Virus record (IMG/VR): IMGVR_UViG_3300045256_000829
Span: 3,503 to 67,502 of that record
DNA: 64,000 nucleotides
Reading direction: 5' to 3' (one strand)
DNA from: a virus
Position 1 is the stretch's first letter; each line of letters begins with the position of its first letter. Both the position numbers and the translations under genes were made by a program. This document shows positions 3,906 through 22,358 of this stretch, piece after piece. The notes below the pieces were generated by a model. The model did no database searches and had not been told where the DNA came from. It saw nothing but the letters and a program-made list of their open reading frames with translations.

Positions 3906-4537
3906 TTGCGCTCCCTGCTAATTGTGATCGGTGAGTCTTTGAGGATCTTGTCGAGGTCCTCACTCGAAATGTTTTCCCAATCGATTTCGTCGAGCGGGTG
4001 AGTTCCAGGGGCAAGGCCTGTCGCGAGCATTCCCATTTCGAGGGCGAGGCGTATGGTGTTTACGATCGAGTTCGCATTCCAGCGCGCCGGCTTGATGATG
4101 ATCGTTTCCCCGTTCTCTCCCTTTCTCTCTTCCTTCTCGATCGGGTACGCCAGCATTTCCTTGCCGCGCTTCATCAACTGCCGACCATAGTCGAAAACTT
4201 CTTCGCGGAATTCCTGCCGGCGTTTCGCCCATTTCGCGGCTTCGCTCGCGGCGTTTTCGCGAATGAGCGCCTCGAAAATTTCCTCAGTTCTCTGGTCGTT
4301 ATGAGCGAGGAAAGCACGGATGCGGGATTGCCATTTGTACTTAGTCGAATAGGAGTCGATTGTGGGGAGGCTGATACCAGTGCGTTTAACGACTTCCTTG
4401 TGAGTACGGTTCGGGCCGATTTCACAGTAAATCTTGAACGCCTCGTACGCCTTGACCGGCTCATTCGATTGCTGATGCCAGTCTCGCGCCTCGATGGGAT
4501 TCTGTTCTGGTTTTTTGGATTTACTTCTCTGTGCCAT
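3902..4537 (-). CDS. terS: Probable terminase small subunit
   Basis: N-terminal HTH (AYEAFKIYCEIGPNRTHKEV...WQSR) plus helical oligomerisation region; upstream of TerL. Confidence 0.7.
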   Translation of the reverse strand: MAQRSKSKKPEQNPIEARDWHQQSNEPVKAYEAFKIYCEIGPNRTHKEVVKRTGISLPTIDSYSTKYKWQSRIRAFLAHNDQRTEEIFEALIRENAASEAAKWAKRRQEFREEVFDYGRQLMKRGKEMLAYPIEKEERKGENGETIIIKPARWNANSIVNTIRLALEMGMLATGLAPGTHPLDEIDWENISSEDLDKILKDSPITISRERN

Positions 4538-4567: not shown

Positions 4568-4621
4568 CATTATGTGTACAGTGAAAAAAAAAGGCAACCC
4601 ATGGAAACTATGGGTTGCCTT
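4568..4621 (-). terminator. Intrinsic terminator overlapping a probable terS promoter
   Basis: 12-bp stem AAGGCAACCCAT/ATGGGTTGCCTT then T-run on - strand; TTGCCT-17bp-CATAAT starts inside it. Confidence 0.75.
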
Positions 4622-4655
4622 ACTTAGTCGATTATTCCCGCTTCACCGCTCTCAT

Positions 4656-4922
4656 CTACGCGGCGCGGCTCTTTGGTTTCCTCGTCGCCTTTTTCTTTTG
4701 CGGATTCCTGCGGCCGGTATTCGGCCGCGCGCCACCACGCTTACGGACAGAAAATTCAGGACCGAGCGCCAACCGTACAATATTCTGAGGTGTCAAGGTT
4801 GAAACATACTCGCGGACCTGTTCCAATGACATGCCGGAGCGCTGAAGGGTTGACCCCGCCAGCGTGTACAGGATCACGGTTTCGGCGTCGTTAAAGTCGA
4901 GATTGTAGATTTTGAGAGCCAT
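4656..4922 (-). CDS. Small basic protein with RGGARPNTGR motif, probably DNA-binding
   Basis: AT-hook-like motif and K/R-rich tail; last gene of a two-gene cassette. Confidence 0.65.
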   Translation of the reverse strand: MALKIYNLDFNDAETVILYTLAGSTLQRSGMSLEQVREYVSTLTPQNIVRLALGPEFSVRKRGGARPNTGRRNPQKKKATRKPKSRAA

Positions 4923-4978
4923 TGTTAGTGGTAAAGCGAAAGCCAGCCAGAGCGGCTACCCTGCGCGGGCTTTTCGCT

Positions 4979-5224
4979 TTATTTCTTTCGCAGTAACCCC
5001 TTCGACGCCAAACCATCCATCGCGCTCAAGCCCGTATTTGGGTACTTACCCGAAGCAATTCGGGCAGCGCCGGAAACCTCTTTCGCTCTCGATCTTGCCG
5101 GGTATTGCCAAGCGCACCCGTCAATCTCGTCGGCTAACATTTCGAGAGAAAGCTGCTTTTCGCCAGCGGTCAAATCGGACTTTTCAATTTCGGTAATTTT
5201 AGCCTCGTATTCAGATAGATTCAT
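4979..5224 (-). CDS. Hypothetical protein
   Basis: AAGGAG RBS before MNLSEYE; directly behind a strong promoter. Confidence 0.7.
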   Translation of the reverse strand: MNLSEYEAKITEIEKSDLTAGEKQLSLEMLADEIDGCAWQYPARSRAKEVSGAARIASGKYPNTGLSAMDGLASKGLLRKK

Positions 5225-5269
5225 CTCGATTCTCCTTGTTAGTAGCAACCCCATTGCTGCGATGGGCGG

Positions 5270-5319
5270 ATTATACTCAAAGGTGAGCTTGAGTCAAGCA
5301 AATTCACCTTTGAGTATAA
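5270..5319 (-). promoter_or_regulatory. Sigma70-like promoter inside a perfect 16-bp inverted repeat
   Basis: TTGACT-16bp-TATAAT; arms TTATACTCAAAGGTGA (5271-5286) and TCACCTTTGAGTATAA (5304-5319). Confidence 0.8.
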
Positions 5320-5362
5320 ATTATTCGGTAAATCGAAAACGAATAAAGAGCAGGGCAGGGAA

Positions 5363-5638
5363 CTACGCGGCCGTTGCCACTTGATTGCCTTCGGCTTGCG
5401 CCTCGTTAATGCACATTAGGCACATCGGTAAATCCACCATTTGATGCCTCGGGCACATCTGGATTTGAAATACCCACTTGTCCCCCTGTTGAACGGGGGA
5501 GATTGCCCCTGTTTCCATTGCGCGCAGCAAGACTTGACTCAATTCGAGAGAGTACAAATCGTTCATTTGGTTTAAGTTCACTGGCTCGCTTGCCAGTGCC
5601 TCGGCCCGCGCGCTGTACGAGTTTTTCTGTGATGGCAT
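5363..5638 (-). CDS. Hypothetical protein, Cys/His-rich C-terminus, overlapping the frameshift extension
   Basis: GGAGG 8 nt before ATG 5638; CPRH...CLMC. Confidence 0.5.
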   Translation of the reverse strand: MPSQKNSYSARAEALASEPVNLNQMNDLYSLELSQVLLRAMETGAISPVQQGDKWVFQIQMCPRHQMVDLPMCLMCINEAQAEGNQVATAA

Positions 5639-6155
5639 GACTAACACCTCCGTCTCGCAACGCAGAGATTACCGCGTCGGTGATTTTCCCTAAATTGATA
5701 CTCTTCGCCTGTCGGCTGGTCATGTTCGGACAAGGCCGATTGACGATCGTTTGAGCGTAACGCTGCTTTGACCATTTAAGCCGCTTGCGAATGATAACAA
5801 AGTACCCACCTTTGGCCCTGTCCCGGCATTCGATTTCATAGCGAAACCATTCGGTTTGCTCGCCCGGTTTTTGTGGGGCATTTCCACCTAAATTTGTAGG
5901 GTATTTCGGGATTTGCCCCACGTTTTTTTGTGGGGCATTTCCGCCTAAGTTTTGTGGGGTATCTTGTGGGGTATTTCCGGGTAAACCTTTAGGTGTATTT
6001 ACGTTTATCGGATTTTGCCCCACTTTTTGAGCAGGGAAATGCCCCACATTATTTTGTAGGGCATTTCCCGCTGATTTTGCAGTCGTTTGAGGCTGACTTT
6101 TAACACCTTGAGCCGACCCAACCGCGCCTCGTGATTGCGTCGTGTCGGCTACGGT
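5406..6155 (-). CDS. -1 frameshift extension of the 6149-6898 membrane protein (repeat linker + basic domain)
   Basis: About 249 open codons; no convincing own start seen; entered in -1 frame at G_GGA_AAA (6161-6155). Confidence 0.7.
   Translation of the reverse strand, partial: TVADTTQSRGAVGSAQGVKSQPQTTAKSAGNALQNNVGHFPAQKVGQNPINVNTPKGLPGNTPQDTPQNLGGNAPQKNVGQIPKYPTNLGGNAPQKPGEQTEWFRYEIECRDRAKGGYFVIIRKRLKWSKQRYAQTIVNRPCPNMTSRQAKSINLGKITDAVISALRDGGVSHAITEKLVQRAGRGTGKRASELKPNERFVLSRIESSLAARNGNRGNLPRSTGGQVGISNPDVPEASNGGFTDVPNVH
5871..6066. repeat. Array of TTGTRGGGYATTT motifs, 6 direct + 3 inverted
   Basis: Direct copies at 5871, 5894, 5928, 5952, 5964, 6054; inverted TGCCCCAC cores at 5914, 6016, 6040. 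Confidence 0.85.
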
Positions 6156-6898
6156 TTTCCCGGCGCATCCGGTTTGCCGTCGCCGTCGCGGTCCCATTCC
6201 CAACTGGCTTTGACCAGCGCGCCGCCGACGATCGACACGAACGCTTCGAGGTACGCAAAGAAAGTCAGGAACGGCATGAACCGCTCCATGACCTCTTCGG
6301 GCGTCTCGATCTTCTTATCGCCGTCCCTGGTGATGACCTTTACCGGCGCCATATCAACAACGGGCAGCTGAAACGCGTCGGGGGTGGCGTCGGCTGATGG
6401 CCGCGGCGCTCCCAAAACTGACCGGCGCATTTGCGGCGGCAAGAGACTTAAACGCTTGTTCTCGGCGTTCAACTGCGCTGTCTGATTTTTCAATAGTTCA
6501 GATTGATTCTTCAGCAGTTCGGATTGCGCGCGATCTTCGGCCAGTTTGAGTTGCGCTTGTTTACGCTGGCGCTCATCAAGACGGTCCTCTTCTTCGTGCT
6601 TTCTGGCCATATTGGCTGAAGCGATTTCGACCTGACGGGCCAGAATCCAGTGAGAGCCGACGTTGACGCACAGCAACACAGACACAACAACGTCAAGGAA
6701 AATACAGGATCGCTGCGTTTTAAGCGTCGCCTGTCGTGAGCGCCAGGTGATGACGGTCACAACGCCTACTGTGATTAGCAGTAGGATAGTCGCTTTTACA
6801 AACGATTTGGGGAATACATCGAAGTTTGACATCCCAACCAATACCCCAGGCAGGATGACGAGGAAAATAAAAAGCACAGACTTTCGCCAGGAATCCAT
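6149..6898 (-). CDS. Membrane protein (about 4 TM segments + coiled coil, C-terminal DxDGDG motif)
   Basis: Three hydrophobic segments near N-terminus, one near C-terminus; ends WDRDGDGKPDAPGKP. Confidence 0.8.
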   Translation of the reverse strand: MDSWRKSVLFIFLVILPGVLVGMSNFDVFPKSFVKATILLLITVGVVTVITWRSRQATLKTQRSCIFLDVVVSVLLCVNVGSHWILARQVEIASANMARKHEEEDRLDERQRKQAQLKLAEDRAQSELLKNQSELLKNQTAQLNAENKRLSLLPPQMRRSVLGAPRPSADATPDAFQLPVVDMAPVKVITRDGDKKIETPEEVMERFMPFLTFFAYLEAFVSIVGGALVKASWEWDRDGDGKPDAPGKP

Positions 6899-7460: not shown

Positions 7461-8735
7461 TTAAACCTTCGTCACTACCTTGTCGATAAAATTCAGAAAC
7501 AGCGTCCGCTTATTCGTGAGGCTCACAAACAGGACTTCGCGGTTCGTCGGCAGGAACGGTTGATAACCAGCGGGACCTTGATCGACTGTAATAGCGCCGA
7601 AGGCCTCCAAGGATAAAATTGCGGCAGGCGCGATGAACTGAGCGATCACAACCGTAAGCGAGCCGAACGATTCACCGGTCACTATTCCTGCCGGCAAGAC
7701 AGAGATTCCACCCGGCGTTAGAGTGGGAGAGCCGAAGGATTCGGCGCTTGGAATGCCTGCCAGCGTGAACGACAAATTCAGCCTTGACGACCCAAACACT
7801 TCAGATGACAGAATCGCCTGAGGCGTGAGATTCAGGTTGATTTGAGGCGCGCCAAAACTCTCAGCCGAAGGGATGCCGGCAACAGACAGAGCGATTGCGC
7901 CCGGCGTGAGCGTGAGCGCGCCGAAGGCTTCAGCCGTGCCAATACCGAAGGGTTGAATAATCAACCCTCCCGTTTGAATAATGTGCGAGCCGAACGCCTC
8001 AGCCGATGCGATCCCTGAAGCCGAGATAGTGACGGAGCCAACCGCGACAGCGTGCGAACCGAACGCCTCAGCTGAGGCGATGGCCTGGCCATAAATGACA
8101 AGGTTGAGAGCGTGCGAGCCAAAGGCCTCGTTCGAGCCGATCCCGCTTACAAAAATCTTCAAACTGAGCGAGGGCGCACCAAAATTCTCAGCTGATGCGA
8201 TGCCTAACACGGTGATCAGGTACGCCGCATTGACAGAGTGAGAACCGAACGATTCGGCCGACGCGATAGCCGAAGGGGACACGTTGATAGCGCCAGGGGA
8301 GATAATCGAGGTTCCAAAACTTTCCGCAGATGCGACGGCCGAAGGCGAAACCGTAACAGATCCAATCCCGACAACTACAGCGCCAAAAGATTCAGCCGTA
8401 GCAATACCCGAGAGCGAGAGAACGACAGCGCCAGGGGACACAGCCACATTACCAAAAGCTTCAGCCGTCGCAATGCCTGAGGGCGACAAGGCGACGGCGC
8501 CCGGAGACACGACCGCGCCGCCGAACGCTTCAGCGCTGGCAACACCACCTGGCGCAACAGTGACGGGACCGGGCGACACAACCGCATCGCCAAAAGCTTC
8601 AGAACTCGCAATACTGCCCGGCGCAACATTGACAGCGCCAGGAACAATAGTTGAGGAACCGAAGGTTTCAGCAGAGTTGATGGCCGAAGGCGATAGGTTT
8701 TGCGCGGCGGGAGTACTCAGTAATAAGAGCAGCAT
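7461..8735 (-). CDS. Repeat-rich virion fibre-like protein
   Basis: 17 GIxSAE(A/S)FG repeats of about 20-24 aa. Confidence 0.75.
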   Translation of the reverse strand: MLLLLLSTPAAQNLSPSAINSAETFGSSTIVPGAVNVAPGSIASSEAFGDAVVSPGPVTVAPGGVASAEAFGGAVVSPGAVALSPSGIATAEAFGNVAVSPGAVVLSLSGIATAESFGAVVVGIGSVTVSPSAVASAESFGTSIISPGAINVSPSAIASAESFGSHSVNAAYLITVLGIASAENFGAPSLSLKIFVSGIGSNEAFGSHALNLVIYGQAIASAEAFGSHAVAVGSVTISASGIASAEAFGSHIIQTGGLIIQPFGIGTAEAFGALTLTPGAIALSVAGIPSAESFGAPQINLNLTPQAILSSEVFGSSRLNLSFTLAGIPSAESFGSPTLTPGGISVLPAGIVTGESFGSLTVVIAQFIAPAAILSLEAFGAITVDQGPAGYQPFLPTNREVLFVSLTNKRTLFLNFIDKVVTKV

Positions 8736-20649: not shown

Positions 20650-21408
20650 TTAAGAGGCAAAAAAATTCATCACGAGCGCGCCCTCGCCGCTATCAGGATC
20701 TTCGGATTCTTCGATACGTCTGATGATTGATCCTCCATATCCCTCGCCGGATTCCGTCCAGTGTTCTTTCAACTTGGCCATTGTACAGTGCGCTGTGATG
20801 ATGACTTGATGATTGTAATTGTATGCGGCGTTGAGAATTCGCAAGATGGCTTCGCCGGTAAATCGAGTAGCGCGGCCGACATTGAAGTCATCGAAAACGA
20901 GTAGCCAGCGCTCGGCGTTTCTTGCCTCACTGGTGAGCGCCGTGACTGAAATCGATGGAATGAACTGATCATTCCATTCGCCGTGCTTTAACTCTTCAAG
21001 AAGGTCTGGCATATACGAAAAAACAGCTGGCCGGTTTTCTTCAACCGCGCGCCTGTAAACAGCGTAAGCCAGTCCAGTCTTGCCGCATCCGTGCGGGCCA
21101 ATGAGAACAAGTGAGCGATATGGATTTTCTTTGATGCGCGGGAGATATATCGCTTGTTTCTTATGGCGTTGCGGTGTCAATGTCATAAGGTTTACGTGTC
21201 GATGCTTGGGTGGAATTTTTGCCAATTTTGCGACTCGATATTTTTCAAGCTTGCACTCACATTCCTTGGCGCCGCGGTCAGTAAATACCCAACCTGGCGA
21301 GCTGCGATCACACCCGCAAGGATTAGTCGAGGGTTCATCAGATAACTTCAGCCCCGAAGAGAGACATTGATTCGCTTGAGTACTGGGAACTGTTTGAGGA
21401 TTTGCCAT
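20650..21408 (-). CDS. DnaC/IstB-like AAA+ helicase loader
   Basis: Cys cluster, GPHGCGKT Walker A, LVFDD Walker B; follows initiator. Confidence 0.85.
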   Translation of the reverse strand: MANPQTVPSTQANQCLSSGLKLSDEPSTNPCGCDRSSPGWVFTDRGAKECECKLEKYRVAKLAKIPPKHRHVNLMTLTPQRHKKQAIYLPRIKENPYRSLVLIGPHGCGKTGLAYAVYRRAVEENRPAVFSYMPDLLEELKHGEWNDQFIPSISVTALTSEARNAERWLLVFDDFNVGRATRFTGEAILRILNAAYNYNHQVIITAHCTMAKLKEHWTESGEGYGGSIIRRIEESEDPDSGEGALVMNFFAS

Positions 21409-22297
21409 CGTCTTTACCTTTCTTTGCAGTTTTGTATTCAGTTAAAGCGTATTTCGTGAACGTTGCGAATCTGTTGCAAAGATCCGCGAGCGTCCGATGC
21501 GCGATTTCACTCGCGAAATAATTATCCAGGGCGGTTGTGAAAAGACTTTCAGGGAGGTCGTTCTTGTAGAGCTTGATAAGCTTCGCGAGGTGAATAAAGT
21601 CAGCCTTTTTCCGATTGTACGGTTGCCCGTAAGCTTCAGGCGCCTCATAACGAACCCTGAAGAGTTCATACAGGAATTTTTGCTGAGCGGAAATCGACGG
21701 CCCCTCTTCTACGAGCGGAACGCGAGTAGAAGTATTTTTACTTTTTTTATTAATATTTTTCTCTATATTGATGTTTCTCTGTCCAACAGAGAATTGATTC
21801 TCTGTTGGACAGAGAATTGCCGCTCTGTTGGACAGAGAATTGATTCTCTGTTGGACAGAGAATTGATTCTCTGTTGGACAGAGAATTGAATCGGGGTTTT
21901 TGGTGCGCTTTTCCGCCCTGGCTAGTCGGGCTTTCTCGGTTTTAGATCTATTCTCGACGATGCGTTCGGCTGCAAAATGCTCGCGACTCTCCCAAAGTTC
22001 GTCAAGCTTTTCTCGATTGATCCTGTAAGCGTAAATCGGCGGGGAATCGACAAGTACGGCATCTATAACGCCCAAGTCGCACAGCGTCTTTCTTGCCGTT
22101 GCTTGCTCGGATCGTGTCAACCCGGTCGCTTTCCTGATCTGTTCGACATTGCGCTTGATCCAACCCTCTTCATTCGGCGACCAATAAAAGAGCTGACAAA
22201 ACAGCATCGTCGCGGACCCTGTTTTAAGTATTTCGGAAAGTGAAGGGTAGTAAACGACTACCTGCCCGAGATTATCCAGGGCGTCTGTTAACTTCAT
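21338..22297 (-). CDS. Replication initiator (lambda O-like organisation)
   Basis: N-terminal wHTH (QLFYW...TGLTRSEQATARKTL), internal iteron array. Confidence 0.85.
   Translation of the reverse strand: MKLTDALDNLGQVVVYYPSLSEILKTGSATMLFCQLFYWSPNEEGWIKRNVEQIRKATGLTRSEQATARKTLCDLGVIDAVLVDSPPIYAYRINREKLDELWESREHFAAERIVENRSKTEKARLARAEKRTKNPDSILCPTENQFSVQQRINSLSNRAAILCPTENQFSVGQRNINIEKNINKKSKNTSTRVPLVEEGPSISAQQKFLYELFRVRYEAPEAYGQPYNRKKADFIHLAKLIKLYKNDLPESLFTTALDNYFASEIAHRTLADLCNRFATFTKYALTEYKTAKKGKDDGKSSNSSQYSSESMSLFGAEVI
21733..21891. repeat. Replication origin: five 23-bp iterons + AT-rich tract
   Basis: CTCTGT-N3-ACAGAGAATTG units at 21777, 21800, 21823, 21846, 21869; AT-rich 21733-21776. Confidence 0.9.
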
Positions 22298-22358
22298 CGT
22301 CAAACCTCTCAATCAATCGTCATCATCGTGGGGAATGTTTCATTGATACGGTAAAACG

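Follow-up and report, generated by a model that had tools for sequence, protein, structure and literature searches.

A two-orientation repeat array in the predicted frameshift extension of a provirus membrane-protein gene and its possible role in tethering DNA to the membrane

Why should a provirus carry nine copies of one short motif, in both orientations, within protein-coding DNA? The question is raised by the stretch analyzed here, hereafter the window, which comprises 64,000 nucleotides (bases 3503-67502) of the 67.5-kb provirus record IMGVR_UViG_3300045256_000829 in IMG/VR. The repeat array (5871..6068, with sites on both strands) lies in an open reading frame (ORF) entered by a candidate -1 frameshift at the 3' end of a membrane-protein gene, where it occupies the linker between the frameshift site and a basic C-terminal domain. 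A first-pass annotation of this sequence had suggested that the domain binds the array and tethers phage DNA to the membrane. Comparison with related loci lends good support to the frameshift and points to conservation of the array as DNA; docking of the appended domain on the repeats is the account that we favor, tentatively, among several that were weighed.

Repeat sites in the window and at related loci

The array is a cluster of one 9-14 nt motif (core TGCCCCAC, extended consensus GGRAWWTGCCCCAC) at 5873-6064. When two mismatches to the 9-mer core (GTGGGGCAT/ATGCCCCAC in the two orientations) are allowed, nine sites are found, six on the + strand (5873, 5896, 5930, 5954, 5966, and 6056) and three on the - strand (5913, 6015, and 6039). 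A degenerate tenth copy was judged by eye to lie near 5988-6001. The gaps between sites are 12-49 nt from center to center, and two site pairs form near-palindromes (5909-5921/5930-5942 and 6034-6048/6055-6069) with spacers of 6-8 nt. Seven of the eight matches to TGTRGGGYATTT with at most one mismatch in the 64-kb window fall within 5872-6066, compared with an expected 0.48 and a maximum of 3 in shuffled sequences, and all six exact matches in the whole 67.5-kb record are inside the array. The first-pass annotation had counted nine copies in about 200 bp, six direct and three inverted, and our recount gives the same numbers. The G+C content is 0.44 in the array and 0.53 in the window; the 40-mer of lowest G+C content in 5300-6300 lies at 5300, about 570 nt from the array and within a promoter region. 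Sequencing contigs from four runs (at most three samples) have no ends or joints at the array, and one 25-kb contig spans it; a search for RNA data sets containing the stretch listed none.

Translated in the orientation of the gene, copies of one orientation encode GNAPQK, GNTPQD, DTPQN, and GNALQN, and the three inverted copies encode VGHF, VGQN, and VGQI, which bears out the N(A/T)PQ-like and VG(Q/H) peptides that had been read there before. Five of the same-orientation copies read GNAPQK-like, and one is read in another frame as KYPTN. Since the copies stand in different reading frames, as well as in two orientations, DNA rather than a peptide appears to be what is conserved, as the first-pass annotation had proposed for the window. 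For the domain family of the window, homologous array DNA comes from a single locus, L076 of genome G626. There TGCCCAC, the window motif minus a single C, is present in ten copies, five in each orientation and each orientation read in two frames (0.54 expected from shuffles), rather than as a retained peptide repeat without inverted copies. The motif GRAWWTGCCC(C)AC, flanks included, is kept at both loci, while the adjoining C-terminal domain uses different codons at 32 of 73 identical degenerate residues and has a nucleotide identity of 64%. Retention of the motif beside codons that have diverged is consistent with its conservation as DNA. Judged from frames and codons together, the array is a DNA-level conserved element.

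Arrays are also present in the linker DNA, between the frameshift site and the part encoding the domain, at four loci besides the window (G626, L009, G456, and G549). L009 has four linker copies of GCCACACGTGGC and a fifth at 7694 (0.11 expected), and G549 has CGCCAAGA in three direct and three inverted copies (1.16 expected). In G456, the 10-bp palindrome CCCTTAAGGG occurs four times, identically and with an exact 36-bp period (0 expected), and is read as 4-5 [AT]LKG peptides that are kept in two protein homologues. At the same position, G564-C1180 contains a perfect 21-nt inverted repeat, and G001-C41 contains two 17-mers and a 38-bp palindrome. No clear array was found in the linkers of G561, G510, G564-C885, G564-C342, G410, and G626-C128. 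Different array motifs accompany appended domains of different classes, and the co-variation of internal arrays with the domain, put forward in the first-pass annotation as a check, is thus seen in the differing motifs of these four loci.

The membrane-protein gene, its frameshift signal, and the appended domain

The membrane-protein gene (6149..6898, - strand) encodes 249 residues in the 0 frame. Four hydrophobic segments stand out in its hydropathy profile, together with a coiled-coil loop of about 118 residues, and the positive-inside pattern of hydropathy and charge predicts that both ends of the protein are cytoplasmic. Four homologues were aligned, and identities of 32-43% were found for L009, G626, and G513. 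The 3' end of the gene reads ...CCG GGA AAA CCG TAG, so that the candidate slippery heptamer G_GGA_AAA (6155..6161, - strand) ends 3 nt before the TAG, and the -1 frame from this heptamer enters the ORF that contains the array.

Among 401 genomes searched, which represent the class of the relative's host, the membrane-protein family occurs at 14 places in 10 genomes. An in-frame X_XXY_YYZ heptamer is located 0 or 3 nt before the stop codon at 12 of these 14 places (GGGAAAC at seven, GGGAAAA at four, and AAATTTT at one). The -1 frame after the heptamer is open for 82-313 codons at the 12 places and for about 250 codons in the window. The two places without this layout are G513 and L086; the latter comes from the unpublished genome G608, has no heptamer, and bears on nothing here other than the count of 14. 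In a control set of 584 mechanical ORFs of at least 100 residues, taken from the window and twelve loci, a heptamer was found in 17, of which 12 are membrane genes; it precedes the stop in 12/12 such membrane genes and in 5/571 other ORFs. The conserved layout in 12 of 14 relatives, compared with 5 of 571 controls, makes the -1 frameshift of the membrane gene well supported by comparison and agrees with the first-pass placement of the array within a frameshift linker.

RNA folding predicts a stem-loop (AGCCGAC/GTCGGCT, 6111..6150, - strand) that begins 4 nt past the heptamer. The 75-nt stretch of the window itself folds no better than shuffled sequence (z -0.28). At most of the other 12 loci a stem begins within about 7 nt of the heptamer, with a different stem sequence each time, and z values for folding are -3.9 to -7.0 at six of the 12. 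The loops of the stem-loops at L082, L084, L085, L089, L090, and L091 have the motif ..TTGCCCCGCC.. in common despite their differing stems; it could take part in a pseudoknot or reflect conservation of a peptide (APPP). In PMC5009743, G_GGA_AAG is described as shift-prone in Escherichia coli and G_GGA_AAC is listed among the shift sites of haloarchaeal viruses. A sub-branch with a longer membrane protein (379-401 residues), represented by L093 (G549) and L101 (G626-C128), keeps GGGAAAA and the stop, and its -1 frame is open for only 82-107 codons without a recognizable domain. Such copies could be in decay, or their extensions could be of another kind.

The -1 extension ORF (5406..6161, - strand; mechanical ORF 5406..6203; called in the database from a GTG at 6047) consists of a linker of about 100 residues and the conserved C-terminal domain (5508..5858, - strand; residues 116-232 of the mechanical ORF). 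The linker is low in complexity, and in the AlphaFold2 (AF2) model residues 1-118 have a predicted local distance difference test (pLDDT) score below 55 and are predicted to be disordered, while residues 120-230 form three long beta strands and four helices with pLDDT above 90. The domain contains 25 K+R and 10 D+E residues (net charge about +15), and several of its arginines are invariant in the family. When 1.84 billion representatives were searched exhaustively with HMMER, the last 156 residues proved to have 36 relatives (E values down to 1e-40), and many of their alignments run to the very C-terminus. The basic domain described in the first-pass annotation is thus real and conserved. The relatives have 14-250 residues N-terminal of the domain, mostly rich in VG[KNQ]-type repeats, and seven of them (P0002, P0004, P0006, P0008, P0013, P0024, and P0036) also have GNA[QH]-type peptides, which by eye are the reverse-complement reading.

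No match to the C-terminal domain was found in Pfam, PHROG, PADLOC, PDB sequences, or three fold libraries. The extension domains of other loci form two sequence groups that are unlike the domain of the window, one with the motif VSKNTWAF (L009, G564, and G410) and the other in G456, G001-C41, G561, G510, and G564-C885. Profile-profile comparison relates these two groups to each other (83% probability, E 9e-6) and detects no relation between either of them and the window's domain family (probability below 1%). The model of the G456-type domain has three strands and two helices with pLDDT above 90, and its matches to nucleic-acid-binding beta-alpha folds are weak and non-significant; the null fold searches of both domain models do not show that the folds are new. 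For a beta3-alpha DNA-binding fold of the AP2/integrase arm-binding type, these searches gave only weak rows (3rmp_C, E 2.5; 3igm_A, E 4.2). In the models, the order of three beta strands followed by a helix is common to the window's domain and this second extension class. Seven further extension products have no Pfam match. G513 is the sole A3-family locus without the frameshift layout; its domain gene has its own ATG in the +1 frame, and an array is absent there as well. As far as these alignments and models reach, the membrane scaffold and the frameshift are conserved and the appended module is swappable.

Candidate docking sites and rival explanations

One cluster per element, mixed orientation and palindromes, a position just upstream of the part encoding the basic domain, and motifs that change together with the domain are most simply accounted for if the appended domain docks on the repeats; in doing so, it would anchor the DNA of its own element, in cis, to the inner membrane. 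We put this forward tentatively, as the best of the explanations considered. Most ribosomes would stop at the TAG and produce the short membrane protein, and a minority would slip on G_GGA_AAA, add the stretch of about 100 disordered residues for which the array DNA codes, and continue into the cytoplasmic domain. The sole or main source of the domain would be the -1 isoform of a protein with four transmembrane segments, of which it forms the C-terminal end. Because bacteria couple membrane insertion to transcription and translation, the finished domain would be left beside its own gene. DNA binding, which we infer for the appended domain, would then be directed to the double-stranded repeats next to the gene. 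With the domain joined to a membrane anchor and synthesized next to the gene that encodes it, such binding would tie that very DNA molecule to the inner membrane in cis. Candidate uses of the tether are retention or segregation of the excised element, organization of replication, and packaging. A more far-reaching version is doubtful: a self-tethering device in which a conserved frameshift supplies a swappable DNA-binding domain that docks on its own linker DNA, serving for retention or segregation without a motor or as a platform for replication or packaging. Such a device would be without a described counterpart.

Several results weigh against docking and tethering. The frame is common to most same-orientation copies, which indicates that coding constraints also shape the motif; from the reading frames, some peptide-level constraint or a history of in-frame duplication is present in addition to conservation as DNA. 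DNA was compared for two of the 36 members of the domain family besides the window, and the orientation of repeats in the others was read from peptides by eye. The window and G626 are unlike in how their sites are spaced and ordered. No clear array is present at eight of the 13 frameshift-type loci (the 12 homologous places and the window), so the array is not obligatory for the role of the protein. The domain models matched no known DNA-binding fold (the best VIA Z scores, 3.9 and 4.1, point to unrelated entries, and Foldseek gave E 0.1 or worse), and the frameshifting itself is a prediction from conserved signals. Finally, the RNA of the array folds strongly (-79 kcal/mol, z -6.6).

This folding is what would be expected if the inverted copies acted in the messenger RNA. 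Hairpins there would hold up ribosomes, or determine how stable the extension is or how well it is translated, without any protein reading the DNA. The 3+3 inverted repeat of G549 and the perfect 21-nt inverted repeat at the same position in G564-C1180 fit this explanation as well. Hairpins, however, need no common motif, and with six copies against three in the window several are without a partner. Direct and inverted copies follow one another in a different order in G626 than in the window, G456 repeats one and the same 10-bp palindrome every 36 bp, and the 21-nt repeat of G564-C1180 has no compensating changes in two close relatives. We regard a role in RNA as quite unlikely. That the repeats have no function of their own is also unlikely, in our judgment. 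A disordered linker could tolerate slippage, duplication, and small inversions, or need only a peptide rich in Gly, Pro, Gln, and Asn, and the predicted disorder and low complexity of the linker, the VG[KNQ]-type repeats of most family members, the eight loci without arrays, and the single frame of most same-orientation copies are consistent with this. It accounts poorly for a motif that is kept between the window and G626 despite diverged synonymous sites in the adjoining domain, for two orientations and two frames at both loci, and for independent arrays of palindromic motifs that recur at the same position in unrelated linkers.

Two other explanations retain a protein that binds the DNA and assign it another purpose. 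The repeats could be intragenic operators, with the membrane isoform as a sequestered or autoregulatory transcription factor and tethering as a by-product; this isoform could be a roadblock or repressor for its own 3' part, for the small overlapping gene ORF C, and for transcription running on into the terminase operon. The confinement of the array to one cluster within its own transcription unit, the end of the module directly upstream of the terminase operon in the window and in L009, and the resemblance of the palindromic sites of G456 and L009 to dimer operators are in keeping with regulation. Because no promoter-like site was found in or beside the array on the coding strand, and because nine to ten sites over 200 bp exceed the usual operator, this too seems an unlikely purpose. 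Alternatively, the array could be a pac or cosB-like site at which the DNA is recognized by the small terminase that is encoded 1.3 kb downstream. Both lambda cosB and P1 pac consist of short repeats clustered in either orientation, and a pac site is often intragenic; the window has a gpA-like large terminase, and terS follows the module there and in L009. Arrays are nevertheless present in G626, G456, and G549, where the fetched stretches contain no homologue of the window's terS or terL, and in the window a self-contained cassette, with a promoter and a terminator of its own, stands between the array and terS. The contigs, which as assembled contigs are a weak indication, have no ends or joints at the array. 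The loci without a nearby terminase speak against a link between array and terS, and a packaging site is very unlikely.

Genomic setting, related systems, and implications

In the window and in the syntenic prophage L009, the module follows a tail-fiber-like cluster and ends just upstream of the operon of terS and a gpA-like terL (Pfam E 9e-26 for the large terminase of the window). The terS start at 4537/4597 agrees with the distance of about 1.3 kb given in the first-pass annotation. Module and terS are separated in the window by a cassette of two genes (4591-5297, - strand; genes at 4979..5254 and 4656..4922), whose promoter is close to consensus (TTGACT-16-TATAAT, 5297-5270) and whose terminator is strong (4621-4591); the L009 locus lacks this cassette. 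Perfect inverted repeats of 13-16 nt surround promoter-like sites upstream of the terminase operon in L009 (7957-7997) and upstream of the cassette in the window (5260-5300), and these look like operator-wrapped late promoters by their sequence. The module adjoins tyrosine integrases in G456, G001-C41, and G410, and in view of these integrases the arm sites of an attachment site were weighed as a reading of the array and set aside. In G513 it belongs to an element of about 12 kb at tRNA-Lys that also has a primase-helicase, and in G626 it lies among ordinary bacterial genes. Directly after the primase-helicase gene of G513, eleven copies of GCGTAAC are found in 300 bp (L077, 5001-5300), which is probably the origin of that element. 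Such varied surroundings mark the module, by gene content, as a portable part of mobile elements that is not tied to packaging genes.

A replication origin was considered for the array and rejected. The phage has a lambda-O-like initiator gene (21338..22312, - strand), followed by a DnaC-like loader (20650..21408), and the extension ORF has no initiator match in Pfam or PHROG. Inside the initiator gene, five palindromic iterons of 23 bp are located at 21772-21886, in agreement with the iterons that the first-pass annotation had noted there; with these at 21.8 kb, the array is not the origin. None of ten neighboring proteins scanned matched a ParA/ParM/TubZ-type nucleoside triphosphatase (NTPase). 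By defining features, the array fails as an origin (no initiator), as a partition system (no motor NTPase), and as pac or cos (no obligatory terminase link). Searches of phage GenBank records gave no DNA or protein match, and IMG/VR contained no relative of the extension ORF or of terS; the IMG/VR relative of terL, L007, begins 52 nt before terS and thus has no upstream region to compare. The domain family of the window was absent from 64 metagenome loci fetched by terS. The ten module proteins had no PADLOC match, the ESM Atlas gave no usable match, and a search of the PDB by sequence with three profiles returned nothing relevant.

A small Cys/His protein with the pattern C-x2-H-x8/9-C-x2-C is encoded by ORF C (5363..5647, - strand), which runs across the 3' end of the extension ORF in a different frame. 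Conserved counterparts occur in G626 (50% identity; L076, 9928-10209) and G513 (43%; L077, 7225-7506), so that ORF C is present at all three loci that bear the domain family of the window. In G513, the extension-domain gene ends earlier, so that ORF C does not overlap it. The 'VPNVH' C-terminus of many family members is the other-frame reading of the C-x-M-C-I motif of ORF C, which suggests that the overlap may be dual-coding, unless the extension ORF has a long tail on which selection does not act.

Several known systems resemble parts of the proposed arrangement. The iterons of the lambda origin lie inside the O gene, and the array likewise would place repeated, partly palindromic sites inside the gene of their binder, in the part encoding a flexible linker. 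The extension domain, however, is unlike any initiator family, an origin exists elsewhere in this phage, and frameshifting would join the presumed binder to a membrane protein. Among partition centromeres, the heptad arrays of the pSM19035 omega protein (direct and inverted) and parC of R1 are comparable in having 7-12 short sites at roughly helical-turn spacing, in mixed orientation and in one cluster per replicon beside the gene of the binder. The window differs in that no adjacent ParA, ParM, or TubZ motor is present, the array is intragenic, and the presumed binder is membrane-anchored. The R sites of lambda cosB and the hexamers of P1 pac share the both-orientation cluster near terS, sometimes intragenic, but arrays of the window's type are also found at loci without a terminase in the fetched stretches. 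According to PMC4974454, a role in bringing viral DNA to the membrane and organizing replication there has been proposed for p16.7 of phi29, an integral membrane protein; by the same account it works via the terminal protein and single-stranded DNA, not a repeat array. It has no sequence or fold relation to the protein of the window and no frameshift. The lambda-like tail chaperones G and GT, according to PMC5009743, likewise depend on a -1 shift at a G_GGA_AAN-type heptamer near the gene end that yields a minor extended isoform, whereas the window gene encodes a polytopic membrane protein outside the tail module and its added part looks nucleic-acid-binding. By analogy, the array would work most like the centromere and iteron arrays that are bound by the product of a neighboring gene, and like phi29 p16.7. 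In a narrow full-text search of the literature, no phage protein came up that binds DNA, is anchored in the membrane, and is made by frameshifting.

Should the tethering idea fail, the frameshift layout at 12 of 14 places and the lineage-specific repeat or palindrome arrays that recur in coding DNA would still stand on comparison. If the idea is correct, the locus would be a case of conserved programmed frameshifting beyond tail chaperones, dnaX, and insertion sequences, one that joins a membrane anchor to a nucleic-acid-binding module, and it would bring two or more new small basic domains with predicted target motifs. The idea of a membrane-attached replicon would become directly testable in two parts, one gene and one 200-bp site. 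For the prophages and small integrative elements of Acidobacteriota, docking of the appended domain on its own linker DNA would provide a simple physical attachment of DNA to the membrane.

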